Origin: an uncultured Chloroflexia bacterium | GTDB lineage: Bacteria; Chloroflexota; Limnocylindria; Limnocylindrales; CSP1-4 | NCBI GenBank assembly: GCA_963746845.1 | Contig: CAVVCZ010000004.1 | Span: 256,001 to 320,000, forward strand | Length of the DNA stretch: 64,000 bases | Direction of reading: 5' to 3' | In this document: positions 39,277-47,402 of the stretch, piece after piece | Numbering within the stretch: the first letter of the stretch is position 1 | Layout: the number at the start of each line of letters is the position of its first letter | Notes under the pieces: model-generated | What the model saw: the letters and a program-made list of their open reading frames with translations, nothing else | What the model was told of the DNA's origin: nothing | Database searches by the model: none | Position numbers and translations under genes: made by a program

Positions 39277-39407
39277 GGGCCGGGCGGCAGACGGATGCCG
39301 CCCCGATCGATGTTGTTGACGGCGGGAACAGCGAACCCGCGTTGGCCCGATGCCATCGCTGCGGTAGACTCGGCCGCGCCGATCGGCCCGAGGCCATCGC
39401 GCTCGCT

Positions 39408-39480
39408 GGGCCGGTAGCTCAATGGCAGAGCAACTGACTCTTAATCAGTTGGTTGGGAGTTCGAGTCTCCCGGCTCACCA
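39408..39480 (+). tRNA. tRNA-Lys (anticodon CTT), CCA encoded
   Basis: GGGCCGG-TA-GCTC-AATGGCA-GAGC-A-ACTGA-CTCTTAA-TCAGT-TGGTT-GGGAG-TTCGAGT-CTCCC-GGCTC-A-CCA; 3' acceptor strand is 2 C short. Confidence 0.9.
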
Positions 39481-39525: not shown

Positions 39526-39560
39526 GTCTGTTTCGGCTCTGTACCGCATTCCGTACCCCT

Positions 39561-39966
39561 TTAAGCCGACGCGGCCGTCCCTCCGAGGATGGCGTCCGTC
39601 CGATCCGCAGCCCTGCCGAGCATCGTGTCGGTGAGGTGGCCGTAGACGTTCGCCGTCGTCGTGATGCTCGCGTGGCCGAGGATCCGCGAGACGACGGCGA
39701 GCTCCTCGCCCTGCTCGAGACGCAAGGTCGCGCAGGCGTGCCGAAGGTCGTGGAAGCGCTTTCGCGGTAGGCCTGCCGCGACGAGAGCCGCCTGGAACCG
39801 GTGCGTGACGGTCGCCGCGTCGAGCAATTCGCCGGTCGGCGAGGTGAACACGAAGTCATGATCATGCCAGCGCCGGCCAGAGGCGAGCCGCTCCTCAAGC
39901 TGCTGGCGGCGGTGTTCGCGGAGCGCGTTCACGAGCCCGCCGCCGAGTCGGAGGGTTCGGCGTGAT
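39561..39966 (-). pseudogene. Tyrosine recombinase/integrase, C-terminal fragment only
   Basis: RFHDLRHACAT (HxxR), LGHASITTTANVYGH (H and catalytic Y); N-terminal and core-binding domains missing. Confidence 0.9.
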
Positions 39967-40231: not shown

Positions 40232-42261
40232 ATGCGAGCTCTGGGCGCGCCCTGTCTGGCGGCGCGCCTGACCCTCACCGGTGCCGCGTGCGTTCTGCTT
40301 GCGGGCGCGTCTGCTGGCCCGGCCGACCGGTCCCGCCGGAGCGACATCGCCGGCCGCGGACGGCGCGGGCTCGGTCATCGCGACCTACCGCGACCGGATC
40401 TCGGAGCTCATGGCCGAGCAGGGCATTCCCGGGCTGGCTGTCGCCCTCGTCGATCGTGACAAGGTGTTGTGGACCGAGGGCTTCGGCCACCTCGATGACG
40501 ACGGCTCGGGACCGGTCACGGTCGACACGATGTTCAGCGTCCAGTCGATGTCGAAGAACTTCACGGCCGTCGCCGTCATGCAGGCCGTCGGGGCGGGACT
40601 GCTGGACCTCGACGAGCCGATCACGACCTACCTGCCGGACTTCACTGTCCACAGCGCCTTCGAGGATCACCCCGAGCGGAAGATCACCCTTCGGATGCTC
40701 TTGGCGCACACGGCCGGGTTCACCCATGAGGCACCGATCGGCAACAACTACGAGCGGGATCCGGGGACCTTCGAGGAGCACGTACGCAGCATCTCGGACA
40801 CCTGGCTCCGCTTCCCGGTCGGCAGTGGCCAGGCCTACTCGAACCTCGGGATCGACCTGGCCGGCGCGATCCTCGCCCGGGTCAACGACGCTCCATTCGC
40901 GGCGGTCATGCGCGACTCGCTCCTCGAGCCGCTGGGGATGTCGCGGAGCACGTTCGACCGAGACGAGATCCGGGCTGCGACCAACCGGGCCATCGGTCAC
41001 ACGTACCCGACTCCGGACCTGCCGATCTTCGAGCCAATGACCGCCGCCGGCGGGCTCTACACGAGCGCGACCGATCTCGCTCGCTATCTCCGCTTCCAGC
41101 TCAACGACGGCTCGATCGACGGCTTGGAGCTGTTGGATCCCGCGCTGATGACCGAGATGCGGACCATCCCGGCGCCGCACGCCAACGCGCCCGCAGGCTA
41201 CGCGCTCGGCGTCACCCGCTACCGCTGGCATGCAGCCGGAAACGCCGAGCTGTTCGGCCATGGCGGTGGCGGGTTCGGCTTCCTGTCGGACCTGTTGTGG
41301 TCGCCGCCGCTCGGCGTCGGGATCGCCGTCCTGACGAACTCGACGGATCAGGACCCCCAGTTCGATCTGGCCCTCTCGATTCTCGGCGACCTCGTCCATG
41401 AGGCGGGCACCGTCTACCACGCTCGCCTGCTCGCCCTGCCCGCCACGGACGCGGCCCAGGATCCCGATAGTCAGTACCTCGCCCCCGCCGGGATGGCGGA
41501 TCTCGTGGCTGCCGCGGGCATGGTTCCGCTCGGAGATGAACCGACGCGCTGGGCGGGGTACGTCGGCGACTACCGGATCCTGAAGGGCGGATTCATCGAT
41601 CCTGGGTCGCCTCCCGGACGATTCTTCGTCGAGTCGGGGGTCCCGTACTTCGACGCGGACGAGGAGGATGGGCTGAACCGGCACCGCCTCACGGAGGTCG
41701 AACCGGGGGTCTTCCTCGCCGAGAATGGCGAGACGCTCGATCTCCGGGGTTCGCCGCCGACCTGGCGAAGCCTTGACCTCCGGCGTGTCGATGGCGGCCC
41801 GGCGGCGTGGCAGTGGCTCCTCGCTCGCGGGCACGGGCGCTGCGACGGTCGTCTGGCTGACCTGGCCGGTCGCTGCCGCCCTGCGGCGACGCCGCTCCGT
41901 GCTTGCTCCCCACGTCGCGTCGCAGGTGGATCGCCGCTGGGGCCGGTTGACCGTGCTTGCCGGGGTCGTCACTGCGTTCTTCGCGTTCGGCGCGATCACG
42001 ATCGTCTTGGTCCAGCCGGCCATCGTCGAGGCCGGGTTCCTCGGGTGGCTCGAGCTGCCGATCGCGCAGCGCATCCTGCTCCATACCCCACTCGCGCTGG
42101 CGGTCGCGGCCGCCTGCTTGGCGTTCATGGTCGGGCTGGGCAGCTTGCGCCGCCAATGGTCGTTCGCGACCACACGCTGGCACGGTTTGCTGGTTGCTGC
42201 GAGTCTCGCCCTCGTCGTCCAGCTCGCGGCATGGGGCCTGATCGGCTGGGGCCTGACCTGA
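40232..42261 (+). CDS. Exported serine hydrolase (beta-lactamase family) with C-terminal TMs; frameshifts at ~40300 and ~41820
   Basis: GGAGG-ATG 40232 signal peptide; SMSK, LLAHTAG, YSN and GHGG in a second frame; TM tail in a third frame. Confidence 0.8.
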
Positions 42262-42427
42262 GGCCATCCGACCCTGGACACGCTGCCCATCATCGCCAAC
42301 CGCGACCCAAGATCCTTCAGGGCTGCTCGACCACCTCGATGGCCACCGTCAGCATTGCCGCGACGGCAGGCGCCTCTGTCCAGGCTCGACCGATCAGGAA
42401 CGGGACAGTCCCCGACCGCACTGTGGC

Positions 42428-42584
42428 ACCGTCGCGCTCGCGACCGTCCCCTGGCCGCCTGGAGCTCTCACTGAGCGATCAGGCGCACGGTCTCGGCCGG
42501 CAGCTCGCCTTTCCCGATGAGGCGCTGGACGGTGGCGGCTCGGCGAGCGGCGTGGAGACCTTCGAGCGTCGATCGGCGCGACAT
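42428..42584 (-). pseudogene. Degenerate copy of the small island protein
   Basis: MSRRSTLEGLHAARRAATVQRLIGKGELPAETVRLIAQ*ELQAAR../DGRERDG aligns to 43163-43363. Confidence 0.7.
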
Positions 42585-42630
42585 CGGGCGACCTCCGGCG
42601 ATGGGGTCGCGCGCCGGTACTCAGCGACCG
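42582..42630 (-). repeat. Leader repeat A, copy 1
   Basis: CGGTCGCTGAGTACCGGCGCGCGACCCCATCGCCGGAGGTCGCCCGATG on the - strand. Confidence 0.85.
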
Positions 42631-42742
42631 TGATCTACGCCCCGACGCGACGGCGGGGAGAGCCTCCGCGCCGGGGATGCCGTGCATCGTGCGCCTCGCG
42701 ATCTACCCCGGATCAGCCGCGGGTGATCGAGGCGAGAGCGAC

Positions 42743-43030
42743 TCAGTTGCGCCCGTCGACCATGTTCTCCGACCGGGCCTGGACGGTCACGCGCTCGCGG
42801 CGGTATTCCTCCAGCGCGAACTGGAAGGCGACGTTCCAGAAGTCCGGAGCCTTCCGGAAGTCCGCCAGCATCTCGGTGCTCCGGAGCCACTCGTCCACCA
42901 GCGGCTCCGCGGTCCGGGCGCGCCCGGGTCCTATTGTGGGTTCGATCAGCCGGGGGCCCAGGTCGAGCCGGACGGCATGTGCCACCTGCGATCCGGCGGA
43001 GTCGAGCCATTGTTCGCCGACGTGGTCCAC
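42743..43030 (-). CDS. Hypothetical protein
   Basis: 95-aa ORF with protein-like composition; no recognisable motif. Confidence 0.4.
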   Translation of the reverse strand: MDHVGEQWLDSAGSQVAHAVRLDLGPRLIEPTIGPGRARTAEPLVDEWLRSTEMLADFRKAPDFWNVAFQFALEEYRRERVTVQARSENMVDGRN

Positions 43031-43162
43031 GGAGGCAGCAACGGATTGCTTGCCTTCCTCGCGGTCGGGGCCGCGGTTCTGCTCTGGCCGAAGCTCCGAA
43101 CCGCAAGCCAGCAGCAGGGCCCACGACAGCCGTCCAGCTAGGCAAGCGACGCTTCGGTTCAG

Positions 43163-43363
43163 CTAGCGCCGCTGGGCAAGCATCCACGCCCACCCGGCCT
43201 CCCAGTACCGCCCGTCGCGCTCAAGGCCGTCCCGCGCCGCCTGGAGCTCCCACTGCTCGACCAGACGCTCGGCCTGCTCGGGTGACTCGCCCTCGCCCAT
43301 CAGCCGCTGCCGGGTCTCGCGGCGCGCTTCGTGGAGTCGTTCGGGATCCGGACGACGAGCCAT
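43163..43363 (-). CDS. Small Trp-rich hypothetical protein (intact copy of a repeated island gene)
   Basis: GGAGGT RBS; two paralogous copies nearby; only synonymous differences against the copy at 47334. Confidence 0.85.
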   Translation of the reverse strand: MARRPDPERLHEARRETRQRLMGEGESPEQAERLVEQWELQAARDGLERDGRYWEAGWAWMLAQRR

Positions 43364-43407
43364 CGGGCGACCTCCAACGATGGGGTCGCGCCGGTACTCG
43401 GTGACCG
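43361..43407 (-). repeat. Leader repeat A, copy 2
   Basis: CGGTCACCGAGTACCGGCGCGACCCCATCGTTGGAGGTCGCCCGATG on the - strand. Confidence 0.85.
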
Positions 43408-43502
43408 TTGGACGACCGACATCGTAGGACCAACGAGTCGTAGCAGCGGCCCGCGGACGCAGCCACCGTCGACTTGCCTACTTACGCACGGATGCAATCA
43501 CC

Positions 43503-44093
43503 GTGACGAACGTCCCGTACAACGTCCCGCCATCACGATCGCTCGCTGACGCGATCCGCGACCCCTCGCTGACAGGCCTCCTCATCGCGGTCCTGCTCTC
43601 GTTCATCCCGTTCATGTGGCCGCTCACGATCTACATCGTCCTGCGTTACGTCACCGGACATCGCGCGATCCGGGGACTGGATACCTCCGCGATGACCGGT
43701 GGCTCGCTGCCCCATCCCGCCGTTCCTGTTGCGAACCGTTCAGCAGCTAATGCAGCGCAACGTGGAGTCTCACGCTCGGGACCGACCACCACAACGAAAA
43801 CGTGCCCGGACTGCGCCGAGACAGTCCTCCGCGGAGCCAGGATCTGCCGGTTCTGTCGGTTTGAGTTTCCGATTGAGGCTGTGTCGGTCGCAGATGTCGA
43901 GCAGCCCGCTGCCGCGTCAACGGCAAGCACTCCGACAAGTGGGACAGATCGGCACGGACGTAGATTTGTTGTCTGTTCGCTTTGCGGAAGGGACACTCAT
44001 CCTGAGTGGGAGCGGGTGTGCCAGTCCTGCGGTTGGGAGATCCCCGAAGCCAACCGACGATGGGGGGTCGAGCCAGCTCGTCTCTCGAGCTAA
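43503..44093 (+). CDS. Membrane protein with two zinc ribbons
   Basis: N-terminal TM; CPDCAE..ARICRFC (UPF0547-like) and CSLC..CQSC. Confidence 0.75.
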   Translation: MTNVPYNVPPSRSLADAIRDPSLTGLLIAVLLSFIPFMWPLTIYIVLRYVTGHRAIRGLDTSAMTGGSLPHPAVPVANRSAANAAQRGVSRSGPTTTTKTCPDCAETVLRGARICRFCRFEFPIEAVSVADVEQPAAASTASTPTSGTDRHGRRFVVCSLCGRDTHPEWERVCQSCGWEIPEANRRWGVEPARLSS

Positions 44094-44132
44094 GCCGCAG
44101 GTAAGCGCCGCCCGCTAGGCTCACCGGCGGCC

Positions 44133-44188
44133 CGCCGCTTCGCGCGCCTGCTGCGTCCTCGAGGCCGGACCGACGGCGACGGCGGGCC
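44133..44188 (+). repeat. Repeat B, copy 1
   Basis: 44/56 nt identical to 46200-46255. Confidence 0.75.
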
Positions 44189-44298
44189 GGTCTCGTACCC
44201 CGATCCGTACCCCTTACAGGGTCCGTTCCCGTGCGATAGGACGGACGTATCGGGACGCAATCCACGCACGAAACGGCCTTCGGTGCGTCCCTGGATCA

Positions 44299-44353
44299 GA
44301 CTCTTGATCAGTTGGTTGGCAGTTCGAGTCTCCCCGGCTCACCAGCACCCTGA
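44299..44353 (+). repeat. attR: duplicated 3' half of tRNA-Lys
   Basis: GACTCTTGATCAGTTGGTTGGCAGTTCGAGTCTCCCCGGCTCACCAGCACCCTGA; 2 substitutions and 1 extra C relative to the tRNA copy. Confidence 0.9.
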
Positions 44354-44363
44354 ACGTGAAACG

Positions 44364-44410
44364 ATCGGGCGACCTCCTGCGATGGGTCGCGCGCCGGTAC
44401 TCGGCGACCG
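44364..44410 (-). repeat. Leader repeat A, copy 3 (ATG lost, no gene follows)
   Basis: CGGTCGCCGAGTACCGGCGCGCGACCCATCGCAGGAGGTCGCCCGAT on the - strand, 10 bp outside attR. Confidence 0.8.
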
Positions 44411-44469
44411 ATGCGGTTTTCGCCATCTTGCGCGGGCCGAGAACTGTTTGAACGCCTAGCCTCGTCTGT

Positions 44470-45051
44470 GTGGATGTGATCGGGACAGCAGACGACCGTT
44501 CGGCATCCAGCGTCGATGCGACACGACCGGAACAGGCCGGAGACATCGCAACGAGGCGCGTGCTCGAGCTCGCCGACCGCGGTCTGGACCGGGCGTTTCG
44601 GCTCGCCGGCCTGATCCTGGGCGATCAGTCCGAGGCGGAGGACGCGACGCAGGATGCTCTGGTCCGAGCATGGCGGGCGGCGGCGACGCTGCGGGATCCC
44701 TCGGGCTTCGATGCCTGGTTCGACCGGATCCTGGTCAACGTCTGCCGAGATCGGCTCCGCCGCCGCGGCACGGTCCGTCTCGTGACTCTTGATGGCGTCG
44801 CCGGGACCGTCGTCGTCGATGACCCGTTCCGCCGGGTCTACGATGACGATGAGCTGCTTGGCGCGATCAGGGCGCTCGGCGACGACGAGCGCGTCGTGCT
44901 GATCCTGCATTTCTGGGCCGACCTGACCCTCGAGGCGGTCGGCGCTCGTCTCGACTGTCCGGTCGGCACCGTCAAGTCGCGCCTCCATCGAGGGCTGAAG
45001 GCGATGCGTGGGCAGCTCGGGGCATCCGAGCGGGACGGGAGGCCCCGATGA
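44470..45051 (+). CDS. ECF RNA polymerase sigma factor
   Basis: EAEDATQDAL..FDAWFDRILVNVCRD; GTVKSRLHRG. Confidence 0.92.
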   Translation: MDVIGTADDRSASSVDATRPEQAGDIATRRVLELADRGLDRAFRLAGLILGDQSEAEDATQDALVRAWRAAATLRDPSGFDAWFDRILVNVCRDRLRRRGTVRLVTLDGVAGTVVVDDPFRRVYDDDELLGAIRALGDDERVVLILHFWADLTLEAVGARLDCPVGTVKSRLHRGLKAMRGQLGASERDGRPR

Positions 45052-46082
45052 CTGACGACCTGAGCCGGGAGCTGCGGGAACGGCTCGGCCGAGTGAGCCT
45101 GCCGGCAGCACCCTCAAGCCTCCGGGACGAGATCGAGAACCTCCGAGCGATCCCTGCCGCCAGCCCCGTCCGGCGACGATCGGCGCGACCGCCGATGATG
45201 CTATTGGCCGCCGCGCTCGTGACCGTGGCACTCGTCGCTGCCGGAATCGGCGGCGCACTCCTCCGGGAACAAAACGAACCGCGTGAGAACCTGTCGCTGA
45301 TTGCCAGCCCGAGCCCGTCAACCGCCGTGTCGAGGTCGAGCTCCCCGAGCCCGAGCAAGATGGCATCGACCCCGAGCCCGACCGCCGTGCCGATCACCTG
45401 GACGCCGGCGAGTCTGAACGAGGACTGGCCGGGGCTGGTCCGCTCCGAGCCCGCCGGACCGCCGATCGTCGTGCCGATCCTGCTGAAGGTCGTGGTCATC
45501 CCGAAGGGTTGTCGGGTTGCGTGCACGTACCCCGGGAGTCCGTCGGGCCACCTGGCCGATCCAACGGGCGACACCGGGTCAGATGCTCTTCCCTGGGCCG
45601 ATATCAAGGACGTCTCCTTCTGCGGGGACACGGGCACCTGCCTGGCGATCGGGTTCGCCTCGGAGTCCCCAGTCGGGGTCGATCCCAGAGAGCGGTGGTT
45701 CGCCTACGGCGTCGTCGTGGACACCGATGGCGACGGCGTTGCGGACTGGCGATACGGGATTGACAACGACCCCGTCGGCACACCGGGTGCTCATGGGTCG
45801 TCGCCCCGCCGATGGTGGCGGACCGACCTTCACACCGGTCGGACTGAATCCACGGTCAACGTCGCAATGTGGGAAGGCGGCGGACCCTTCTGGGGGAACC
45901 ACGGAGACCAGACTGCTGGCAGCGGGCTCTCGTTTGGTGGCGACACGACCGCCGGCGTGCGCGGAGGCGTACCCAAGCGCTTCTACGCGTGGGCATCGGT
46001 GATCCAGGATGGCCGGGTCGTTTCCACCGACTACGCTCCCGATGCTGGGTGGCTCGTTCCGTCGGCCGACGCGAAGAAGTGA
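45048..46082 (+). CDS. Single-pass membrane protein, probable anti-sigma factor
   Basis: ATGA overlap with the sigma gene; short N-terminus, TM, Ser/Pro linker, extracellular domain with DTDGDG. Confidence 0.8.
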   Translation: MTDDLSRELRERLGRVSLPAAPSSLRDEIENLRAIPAASPVRRRSARPPMMLLAAALVTVALVAAGIGGALLREQNEPRENLSLIASPSPSTAVSRSSSPSPSKMASTPSPTAVPITWTPASLNEDWPGLVRSEPAGPPIVVPILLKVVVIPKGCRVACTYPGSPSGHLADPTGDTGSDALPWADIKDVSFCGDTGTCLAIGFASESPVGVDPRERWFAYGVVVDTDGDGVADWRYGIDNDPVGTPGAHGSSPRRWWRTDLHTGRTESTVNVAMWEGGGPFWGNHGDQTAGSGLSFGGDTTAGVRGGVPKRFYAWASVIQDGRVVSTDYAPDAGWLVPSADAKK

Positions 46083-46199
46083 TGGAGCCTCGCCGCCACG
46101 GAGCCAGAGCGCAACACGAGGCCCGGCGTCCACGGCAGAGCAGAGTCACAAAGATCAGATGAACGGCGCATAAGCGAGACGCCCTAGCGTTCGCGACGC

Positions 46200-46255
46200 C
46201 GTCGCTCCGCGCGTCGGCTACGCCCTCAAGGCTAGACCGGCGGTGACGCCGGGCC
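46200..46255 (+). repeat. Repeat B, copy 2
   Basis: CGTCGCTCCGCGCGTCGGCTACGCCCTCAAGGCTAGACCGGCGGTGACGCCGGGCC. Confidence 0.75.
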
Positions 46256-46345
46256 GTACTGTCTGCGCAATGTACAAACCCACCGCCCATCGGGTCGCGA
46301 GGCGACGAGGACCCGGTTTGCCTGACGACCGGTCAGCGGTTCCTC

Positions 46346-46774
46346 GTGAGTGAGACGGACGGACTACGCGCGCTGCCCGACGACGTATTCGAGCTCATGT
46401 GGTCGGAGCTATCCAGTGATGAGGGTGCTCTGCCCTACGAGTCGAAGTACGGGACCCTCCACATAGGAGCGATCTCGGCCGAGCTCGAGCGGATCCTTGA
46501 CGTCTGGCTCCTCTCTCCGCGGGGACGGACGATCCGGATCCACTTCCGACCGGCTGCGACGGTCGAGGTCGACGACCTCGAGGTCCCGGTCGAGGATCTG
46601 CGTATCAGCCCGTACGTCATCACCACGATCGACGTTCTCGAGGATCTCGCCGGGGCGCTCCGGGCGGGGTCGACCGCCGAGCGCGCCAAACACATCAAGA
46701 ACATGGCGGACGCCGAACGGCGAGCCGAGGAGTTCCGCCGCCGCCAGATCGAGGAGCGGCTCAACTCGTTGTGA
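46346..46774 (+). CDS. Hypothetical protein
   Basis: 142-aa ORF with protein-like composition and a coiled C-terminus. Confidence 0.65.
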   Translation: MSETDGLRALPDDVFELMWSELSSDEGALPYESKYGTLHIGAISAELERILDVWLLSPRGRTIRIHFRPAATVEVDDLEVPVEDLRISPYVITTIDVLEDLAGALRAGSTAERAKHIKNMADAERRAEEFRRRQIEERLNSL

Positions 46775-46895
46775 GCGCCGCGCCAACGCCGCCGCTAGGC
46801 TGGCGGGCCGGTTGCTTGCGACGATCGGAAGATGCTGCGGCGGGCAGCCTGTGCCGAGATGGCGAAGCAACGTGCATGACAGCTTCGCGACCGGC

Positions 46896-46950
46896 CGCCG
46901 CTCCGCGCGCCGGCTGCGTGTGACAGCTAGACCGACGGCGACGGCGGGCC
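46896..46950 (+). repeat. Repeat B, copy 3
   Basis: CGCCGCTCCGCGCGCCGGCTGCGTGTGACAGCTAGACCGACGGCGACGGCGGGCC. Confidence 0.75.
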
Positions 46951-46990
46951 AAGCTCGCGAACCTTCGGGGAGTCCGCGCCCCATGACCAG

Positions 46991-47212
46991 CTACGCGATC
47001 GTCTCGCCGATCGTCGTCAGCTGTTCGATGACCGAAGCCGCCGCTTCATCGATGTCACGATTTCGAGCGACAGCGCGTATCTTCACCGGGTCTTCCAACT
47101 CGACGGCGACCGTCCAGACACCGTCGCTGCTTGATGCCGGCGGCGTGGCGTCAATCTCGTACCCTTCGTCCCCCGCCCATTGACGAAGCCGAGCGAAGTC
47201 TCCTTTGGCCAT
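46991..47212 (-). CDS. Small hypothetical protein
   Basis: 73-aa ORF, purine-rich upstream, alpha/beta-like composition. Confidence 0.6.
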   Translation of the reverse strand: MAKGDFARLRQWAGDEGYEIDATPPASSSDGVWTVAVELEDPVKIRAVARNRDIDEAAASVIEQLTTIGETIA

Positions 47213-47333
47213 GACCCACCTGCCTCACTTGGCCGCGAGAGCCGATAACTGGACGGCATACCGGAGGCTCGCACTATGGAGCCTACAACCGTGGGGCGAC
47301 GGGGTTAGCCTGGGCCGCAGCGGCCGCCCGTCG

Positions 47334-47402
47334 CTATCGCCGCTGGGCGAGCATCCACGCCCAGCCAGCCTCCCAGTACCGCCCGTCGCGCTCGAGCCCG
47401 TC
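47334..47402 (-). pseudogene. 3' fragment of the small island protein (third copy)
   Basis: DGLERDGRYWEAGWAWMLAQRR* identical in protein sequence to the 43163 copy. Confidence 0.8.

Follow-up and report, generated by a model that had tools for sequence, protein, structure and literature searches.

A constrained small-protein gene repeated in tRNA islands of a Chloroflexota genus and linked to integrase remnants and a hairpin repeat

What does a 66-codon gene of no recognised family do, when it recurs on one strand downstream of a single tRNA gene? The question is raised by a stretch of 64,000 nucleotides (nt) from an uncultured Chloroflexia bacterium (assembly GCA_963746845.1, contig CAVVCZ010000004.1, positions 256,001-320,000), here called the window and analysed as a whole. 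The gene recurs in copies, is restricted to islands, keeps one orientation, is under purifying selection as a protein, and is linked to remnants of tyrosine integrases and to a hairpin repeat. We tentatively read it as a conserved backbone gene of small integrative elements that target tRNA 3' ends in one Chloroflexota genus, which the titles of named relatives place in Candidatus Limnocylindria. With somewhat less assurance, we regard it as possible that the small protein acts in the element's own recombination, as a directionality or accessory factor or as a regulator of the integrase. Relatives' genomes, contigs and loci are cited below by our own handles (G, C and L numbers).

Four pieces of the gene lie on the minus strand of the window (Table 1). 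The initial annotation had listed three same-strand copies (one intact, one pseudogene and one 3' fragment), and all three are found in place; the fourth piece, a 5' leader alone (copy C), is added here. Copy B is intact, with an open frame running from ATG to TAG in the open reading frame (ORF) list, and its protein holds four tryptophans among 66 residues. Copy A translates as MSRRSTLEGLHAARRAATVQRLIGKGELPAETVRLIAQ*ELQAARG..., with TGA where intact copies carry the tryptophan codon TGG; family likeness is lost after about codon 51 and the 3' end is gone. The peptide of copy D, DGLERDGRYWEAGWAWMLAQRR, equals the matching part of copy B, and a recount confirmed six differences between the two over 69 nt, every one synonymous and in a third position. 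Copy C begins 2 nt past the 63-nt copy of the 3' part of tRNA-Lys, and its counterpart module in G016 retains small-gene codons 1-37. Alignment of all copies defines the repeated unit as running from about 47 nt before the ATG through the stop codon. The window pieces have nhmmer E-values from 1.7e-9 to 3.4e-69, and the likeness among them is far beyond chance.

Two simpler accounts of the fragments were rejected. Copies A and D are not the halves of one gene split by an insertion: the strand order is wrong and their flanks match different modules in relatives. A single 21-nt attachment (att) core inside the gene was hinted at by the overlap of the end of A and the start of D, and was then refuted because the fragment borders in 14 further pieces are scattered, with starts and ends over model positions 156-203 and 133-221. 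We also observed a perfect 8-bp palindrome, GCTGGGCG-N8-CGCCCAGC, in the GWAWMLAQ codons of copy D (47350-47375); copy B has a weaker form of it.

The protein is real and under purifying selection, as the initial annotation had proposed. Among four close intact copies, the ratio of nonsynonymous to synonymous substitution rates (dN/dS) is 0.12-0.34 in six pairs, at dS 0.6-1.0; over 224 pairs of 22 sequences, two duplicates having been dropped, the median is 0.42. With synonymous sites near saturation and the protein conserved, the target of selection is the protein rather than the DNA. Near relatives at E ≤ 0.01 number 27 proteins of 45-103 aa, two of them from the own genome and four listed on one 34,988-bp contig. 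Searched against 1.84 billion representatives, a profile built from 21 of these relatives collects 485 clusters (50% identity level) at E ≤ 1e-3, of which 92 reach E ≤ 1e-10.

The view that no family is recognisable also held in the libraries searched, and no clear match to a known family, which would have spoken against a new one, emerged. The window protein has no match in Pfam, and 54 members scanned against Pfam at E ≤ 1 gave no excisionase or recombination directionality factor (RDF), no Sigma70_r2 and no helix-turn-helix (HTH) domain. Also without a match for it are NCBIfam, PADLOC, PHROGs (best E 0.1) and the PDB sequences (best E 0.09), as are the phage and plasmid collections searched by tblastn; the ESM Atlas gave no usable match. 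The AlphaFold model, with a predicted local distance difference test score (pLDDT) of 81.7, has helices at residues 7-24, 28-45 and 51-65 and no strand. The small protein is thus predicted to be a three-helix bundle with an arginine-rich first helix, and the conserved positions are those of this helix together with aromatic residues. The structural comparison that had been suggested for it gave nothing at E ≤ 1e-3 in Foldseek; an exhaustive VIA structure search peaked at Z 7.6, a score that helical bundles reach by chance. A homodimer prediction with two copies scored 0.02, giving no verdict. Among the sequencing runs found to hold the source genome there were no RNA runs, and two soil DNA runs only, in which it makes up small shares.

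The location of the pieces inside a tRNA-Lys island was borne out. Synteny with the relative G004 breaks at tRNA-Lys and returns at about window position 52757, so the island is about 13 kb long and encloses all four pieces. It has a tRNA at its border, a direct repeat of the tRNA 3' part, an adjoining tyrosine integrase (as a remnant) and content that differs from the relative. Across the own genome, blastn and nhmmer find eight pieces, all on contig C4: four at tRNA-Lys(CTT), one full copy at tRNA-Pro(GGG), two broken ones at tRNA-Leu(TAA) and one fragment far from tRNAs. Seven of the eight (three of four loci) lie no more than 8 kb downstream of a tRNA gene, all seven antiparallel to it, and the regions up to 10 kb downstream of the 60 tRNAs make up just 12.8% of the own genome. 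Repeat search and blastn find a direct repeat of the tRNA 3' end in each of the three own islands. These counts, and similar ones in relatives, uphold the earlier proposal of integrative islands at tRNA genes. Only two pieces are intact (copy B and the tRNA-Pro island copy) and six are broken, a decay that fits a gene of a mobile element.

Within the genus, 19 of 36 other genomes match the family. In the sister family, 3 of 24 genomes match, weakly (E 4e-5 to 6e-4) and over N-terminal residues only. Of 300 other genomes sampled evenly across the phylum, one matched, and it is of the same genus; 14 genomes representing seven other genera of the genus's own family gave no match. Scoring there was limited to 19 candidates per genome, and weak members may have been missed. 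A genome-contig scan with the close-family alignment left nothing after tblastn; one with a distant subfamily added 22 loci in named records, all titled as metagenome-assembled genomes (MAGs) of Chloroflexota, Chloroflexia or Candidatus Limnocylindria/Limnocylindrales, and many of these align with the own genome at 65-82% nucleotide identity. Nine have a tRNA within the locus; others sit in short indels between core genes. Metagenome contigs with the family are three only, of 1-2 kb.

The same tRNA-island pattern occurs in G016 (tRNA-Pro, tRNA-Asn), G005 (tRNA-Pro, tRNA-Val), G004 and G017. At the protein level G016 gives 15 matches, most of them in two islands: one of 48.6 kb that is delimited by tRNA-Asn and a copy of this tRNA's 3' end, and one downstream of tRNA-Pro. 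In G005 there are eight, in a tRNA-Pro island and in an island of about 34 kb at tRNA-Val(TAC) that carries a frameshifted integrase as well as primase-like genes. The latter island (L073, G005:C2:830355-835100) begins with the integrase, split over at least three frames, and its primase-like ORFs have a zinc-finger motif by eye. Most units in G016 and G005 are broken by TAG, frameshift or truncation. Among 13 nhmmer hits in loci L031-L035 of G016, a full-length match is seen in two units only, one keeping the normal stop and the other running on to 133 aa. In the named MAG L042, a family member antiparallel to tRNA-Cys sits in a 2.0-kb insert between that tRNA and a 65-nt repeat of the tRNA 3' end; tblastn with five integrase pieces found no integrase remains in the 1-kb spacer of L042 or in other islands.

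The link to a tyrosine integrase comes from homologues of the window's integrase remnant, which occur at seven sites in 6 of 43 genus genomes (one site, G010:C185, is from an unpublished genome). At five of the seven the remnant lies no more than 150 nt from a tRNA (Lys three times, Pro and Val). At four, the small gene is upstream of the remnant and co-oriented with it, within 2.6 kb: the two are fused in G017:C548, and at the other three sites they are separated by about 0.3 kb (G362:C17), 1.26 kb (G017:C493) and 2.5 kb (the window). It is directly adjacent to the remnant at two of the seven sites. To judge from sequence, this position and the constant orientation to the tRNA are as would be expected of a pair of the xis-int type, and they are the main support for an accessory or directionality role. 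An RDF, a regulator or a toxin had been proposed at the outset; the RDF gains by position only (those four of seven sites), and the toxin is without support.

The islands are composed of modules that recur elsewhere. In the window, the stretch 44365-46117, the sigma/anti-sigma module with its leader, matches a module of the G016 tRNA-Asn island at 89% identity over 1767 nt, and copy D with 400 nt downstream is 80% identical to part of the G016 tRNA-Pro island (L031:18529-18994). The block formed by copy B, a 95-residue ORF (orf95) and copy A (42429-43410) shows 74-77% identity to the own tRNA-Leu(TAA) island (G000:C4:910158-911087), with 77% over window positions 42429-42916. Modules are shared between different tRNA islands, and therefore they have moved between islands. 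The initial picture of an element family that inserted repeatedly at this place stands as far as a backbone gene of tRNA islands is concerned but was too simple, as the island is a mosaic of modules found at other tRNA islands.

Under our preferred reading, an element would be laid out along the tRNA in the order tRNA with attL, tyrosine integrase and small gene antiparallel to the tRNA, cargo parallel to it and often ending in the hairpin, and attR. The cargo before attR, itself a copy of the tRNA 3' end, would consist of one gene or a few, and the small gene would be on the upstream side of the integrase. Repeated insertion at the same tRNAs, module exchange and deletions that killed the integrases could then have produced the present mosaic with its four pieces. 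Like excisionases and RDFs (lambda Xis, AlpA/MerR-like Xis), the small gene is borne by the element and, at four of the seven remnant sites, lies upstream of and co-oriented with a tyrosine integrase, on the attL side. In lambda the Xis sites lie at the attR side, and there too the islands have their repeat-rich DNA. Unlike RDFs, the small protein is without a family match, has a wingless three-helix model and a near-neutral window copy, and is encoded in several copies per island. The islands also resemble tandem genomic-island accretion, with a tRNA at one end, the 3' part of that tRNA directly repeated at least once, an integrase on the tRNA side and content that varies among relatives. They differ from it in that the elements are about 2-5 kb long, the integrases are all remnants, and a small gene and a hairpin are private to them. 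We conclude that these are tRNA islands of a known kind, set apart by two private features, a leader-bearing small gene and a hairpin repeat.

Several observations weigh against a backbone gene that serves an integrase. No element with an intact integrase was found, and adjacency is known from remnants alone: the open frames at the seven integrase sites span 134-226 aa, none of them intact. Three of the seven remnant sites are without the small gene in the available DNA, and several copies per island lie far from any integrase remnant. Around the genes of the 22 distant relatives, none of 57 ORFs is an integrase (roughly within 3 kb, by our own ORF filter). Among 13 leader-bearing units, five are divergent from a cargo gene, 56-98 nt apart. 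The Pfam scan of the 54 members shows no sequence likeness to known excisionase or RDF families, the model shows a simple wingless bundle of three helices with generic best structural matches (Foldseek, VIA), and the isoelectric point of the window protein is 5.84, with a family median of 8.87 and a range of 4.6-11.5. The leader folds are no stabler than shuffles in five of six cases, and the consensus leader fold has one compensatory pair among 10. Finally, a distant subfamily occurs in single copy, in synteny and free of tRNAs, beside an amidohydrolase gene in eight genomes. Homologues mostly in stable core loci had been named at the outset as grounds for abandoning the element idea; the gene is bound to islands in the own genome, but this subfamily does occupy a core locus.

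As to the role of the protein, we rank an integrase accessory or directionality function first, followed by host use, cargo regulation, conflict and a role at the level of DNA. Host use would make it a lineage-specific small protein, such as a stress or regulatory adaptor, carried as island cargo and copied as a by-product of island duplication or module exchange. We consider this unlikely. Intact copies (B and that of the tRNA-Pro island) do persist though integrases of the associated type are all dead in genome and genus alike, and the core-locus subfamily is syntenic in its eight genomes. Distant members of the family are without the leader and carry a promoter-like sequence of their own, CTGACA-N17-TACCAT, about 6 nt before the ATG (by eye), which suggests leaderless mRNAs. 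However, most own copies are broken, the core-locus subfamily looks broken or run-on in about four of the eight genomes, and it is absent from the own genome, with no copy at the matching place on contig C1. Moreover, a fixed orientation to tRNA and integrase is not expected of free cargo.

Less likely again is a regulator or adaptor of the divergent cargo gene, or a binder of RNA polymerase or of the islands' extracytoplasmic function (ECF) sigma factors. The five divergent units would suit such a role, and ECF sigma genes border directly on the unit in both the window and G016 and are next to it in G005. There is a weak structural likeness to sigma region 2 (Z 5.7-6.0), among many three-helix matches, but these scores are in the chance range for helical bundles and the 54 members have no Sigma70_r2 or HTH match at E ≤ 1. 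The cargo varies by copy (zinc-ribbon protein, sigma factor, SnoaL, DUF4386, glyoxalase), and ECF sigma genes are common in such genomes, where adjacency may be chance.

The second repeat of the islands is an imperfect hairpin of 60 nt (typical copy about -39 kcal/mol), which without exception has the orientation of the tRNA and the opposite orientation to the small gene. By nhmmer, the own genome has six copies, six of six in the three small-gene islands, and G016 has 16; the window's three lie 36-119 nt past successive plus-strand ORFs. By covariance model, 15 of the 36 genus genomes have it, against none of 24 in the sister family. Where a genome has both, 26 of 39 hairpin matches lie within 10 kb of a small-gene match (hand count). 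Across the 36 genus genomes, presence and absence of gene and repeat show no association (both in 8, gene only in 11, repeat only in 7, neither in 10); gene-only genomes mostly carry the core-locus subfamily. Rfam has no family for the leader or the hairpin repeat at E ≤ 5.

These arrays resemble integron arrays and clusters of attC sites lacking integron integrases (CALINs): short accessory ORFs share an orientation, and many are followed by a hairpin of about 60 nt within 9-220 nt. Structured sites stand three in a row in the window (44129, 46199 and 46893), and at least seven lie in 12 kb of G016 (L035). SnoaL, glyoxalase, DinB and GNAT proteins are typical cassette cargo and are found in the islands, along with DUF4386, ECF sigma factors and regulators. 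The attC consensus ends are GTT...AAC; the repeat instead ends in GGCCCGCCG...CGGCGGGCC, without these ends and without the R''/R' arrangement of attC, judged against that consensus. An integron integrase is absent from G000 (the own genome), G016 and G005 (TIGR02249 best 83 bits, cut-off 265). Unlike integrons, the islands' arrays are flanked by tRNAs and stand beside remnants of phage-type integrases, and we know of no counterpart of the small gene in integrons. Improbable in our estimate is a cassette system of a new kind in Limnocylindria, in which modules of small gene, cargo and hairpin would be captured and shuffled at tRNA platforms by a phage-type tyrosine recombinase, the small protein serving as a module-borne accessory factor that recognises the hairpin and no integron integrase taking part.

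The 5' leader bears on how the gene may be expressed. In six of six single-sequence folds the Shine-Dalgarno sequence lies within a helix of 6-7 bp, whose partner strand differs by lineage (GCGACC/GGTCGC in the own genome, GACCTCC/GGAGGTC in G017 and G026, GAGTACC/GGTACTC in G005). The folds give a weak indication that this helix could hold down translation of the small gene. Tight translational control of this sort is also what would speak for a selfish maintenance or conflict gene (toxin-like, addiction or anti-defence) that stabilises the islands, a role we regard as highly improbable. The gene is placed in accessory-gene arrays, and in three named loci it has a DNA methylase as a neighbour: in L047 and L049 it is the direct upstream neighbour of the methylase gene, and in L045 it lies about 1.5 kb downstream of a methylase gene whose product has a ParB_N domain. 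Yet there is no conserved partner gene across copies, and hence no two-gene operon of type II; the protein is hydrophilic (grand average of hydropathy, GRAVY, -1.43), unlike type I toxins, and matches nothing in PADLOC or in the phage and plasmid collections.

Very doubtful, finally, is that DNA matters over protein, with the 250-bp unit and the 60-nt repeat as portable homology or recombination sites for cargo swapping: the unit has sharp ends at leader start and stop codon and is set in unrelated DNA, 3' and 5' fragments are numerous at module borders, and the sigma module (at tRNA-Lys here, at tRNA-Asn in G016) and the B-orf95-A block (again at tRNA-Leu) recur, but the protein is kept at near-saturated dS and the scattered break points offer no single core site.

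Returning to an element-borne gene that assists its integrase as the preferred reading, its interest lies in the host group. Limnocylindria are abundant uncultured Chloroflexota of soil and freshwater, and to our knowledge almost nothing is known of their mobile elements. In the part of the literature that our search reached, no paper naming Limnocylindria turned up on their integrases or genomic islands. The 485-cluster protein family without annotation, its leader and the private hairpin are three handles on the variable islands of these bacteria. If the protein is an integrase accessory factor, it would represent a new RDF family; if the modules move as units, they would form a cassette system outside the integron paradigm; if neither is true, the small gene still marks island borders in these MAGs.

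Table 1. Coordinates of the small-gene pieces and other features of the tRNA-Lys island, with the loci of the distant subfamily
Feature	Position in window (or loci)	Strand	Evidence
tRNA-Lys (CTT), attachment gene, attL side	39407..39479	+	ARAGORN; Rfam tRNA 57.2 bits
21-nt sequence, copies 86% alike	39541..39561 and 44195..44215	+	repeat search, family D15
Tyrosine integrase C-terminal remnant, 123 aa, pointing at tRNA	39561..39932	-	PF00589 E 6.9e-16, profile positions 71-170 of 172 only
Copy A, leader (42585-42631) and broken gene (42428-42584)	42428..42631	-	TGA at Trp-39 codon; nhmmer model positions 4-209
orf95, family not recognised, between copies B and A	42743..43030	-	codon-usage signal
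Copy B, intact 66-aa gene	43163..43363	-	ORF list; dN/dS; structure model pLDDT 81.7, three helices
Conserved 5' leader of copy B, Shine-Dalgarno GGAGG in predicted short helix	43364..43410	-	alignment and folds
Cargo: membrane/zinc-ribbon protein, divergent from copy B	43503..44093	+	weak zinc-ribbon Pfam matches below curated cut-offs
60-nt hairpin repeat copy 1, 36 nt past zinc-ribbon gene	44129..44189	+	nhmmer, covariance model R1, consensus fold
tRNA-Lys 3'-part copy and 18 nt beyond, attR-type direct repeat	44299..44361	+	repeat search D10/D11, 94% and 90% identity; blastn
Copy C, 5' leader alone	44364..44410	-	likeness ends at start-codon position; repeat search (D6, D8), blastn, nhmmer
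ECF sigma factor (44470-45051) and putative anti-sigma factor (45048-46082), divergent from copy C	44470..46082	+	Sigma70_r2/r4
60-nt hairpin repeat copy 2	46199..46257	+	nhmmer, covariance model
Cargo ORF, 142 aa, no family	46346..46774	+	codon-usage signal
60-nt hairpin repeat copy 3	46893..46951	+	nhmmer, covariance model
Copy D, last 22 codons and stop	47334..47402	-	blastn, nhmmer, codon comparison
Distant core-locus subfamily	L019, L022, L023, L025-L027, L029, L030		promoter-like sequence right before ATG

Among the remaining features of the island, the 21-nt sequence has one copy by the integrase stop codon and the other between the hairpin repeat and the tRNA-Lys fragment, and it may be an arm-type integrase site. 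The orf95 protein has 80% amino acid identity to L032:500-745 and is kept beside the small gene in G016 and in the own tRNA-Leu island; orf95 follows a small-gene unit at three places only, and has no Pfam, NCBIfam or PHROG match. Likewise, the 142-aa cargo ORF has no match in Pfam, NCBIfam, PHROGs or PADLOC. The contigs have 70-72% G+C, which makes six-frame ORF lists noisy. A 961-codon plus-strand frame (40281-43166) was accordingly rejected as a gene: it is an artefact of high G+C, with a coding signal only to about 41710 and other genes overlapping the rest.

Two further observations concern neighbouring genes. A homologue of the DNA methylase found beside family members in named MAGs is present in the own genome (C4:233427-234755), and no small gene was detected there. 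In G016, a heliorhodopsin gene (L033:5996-6799; PF18761, E 1.2e-96) lies about 1.2 kb outside the far tRNA-Asn repeat (L033:8008-8040), beside a fasciclin gene.

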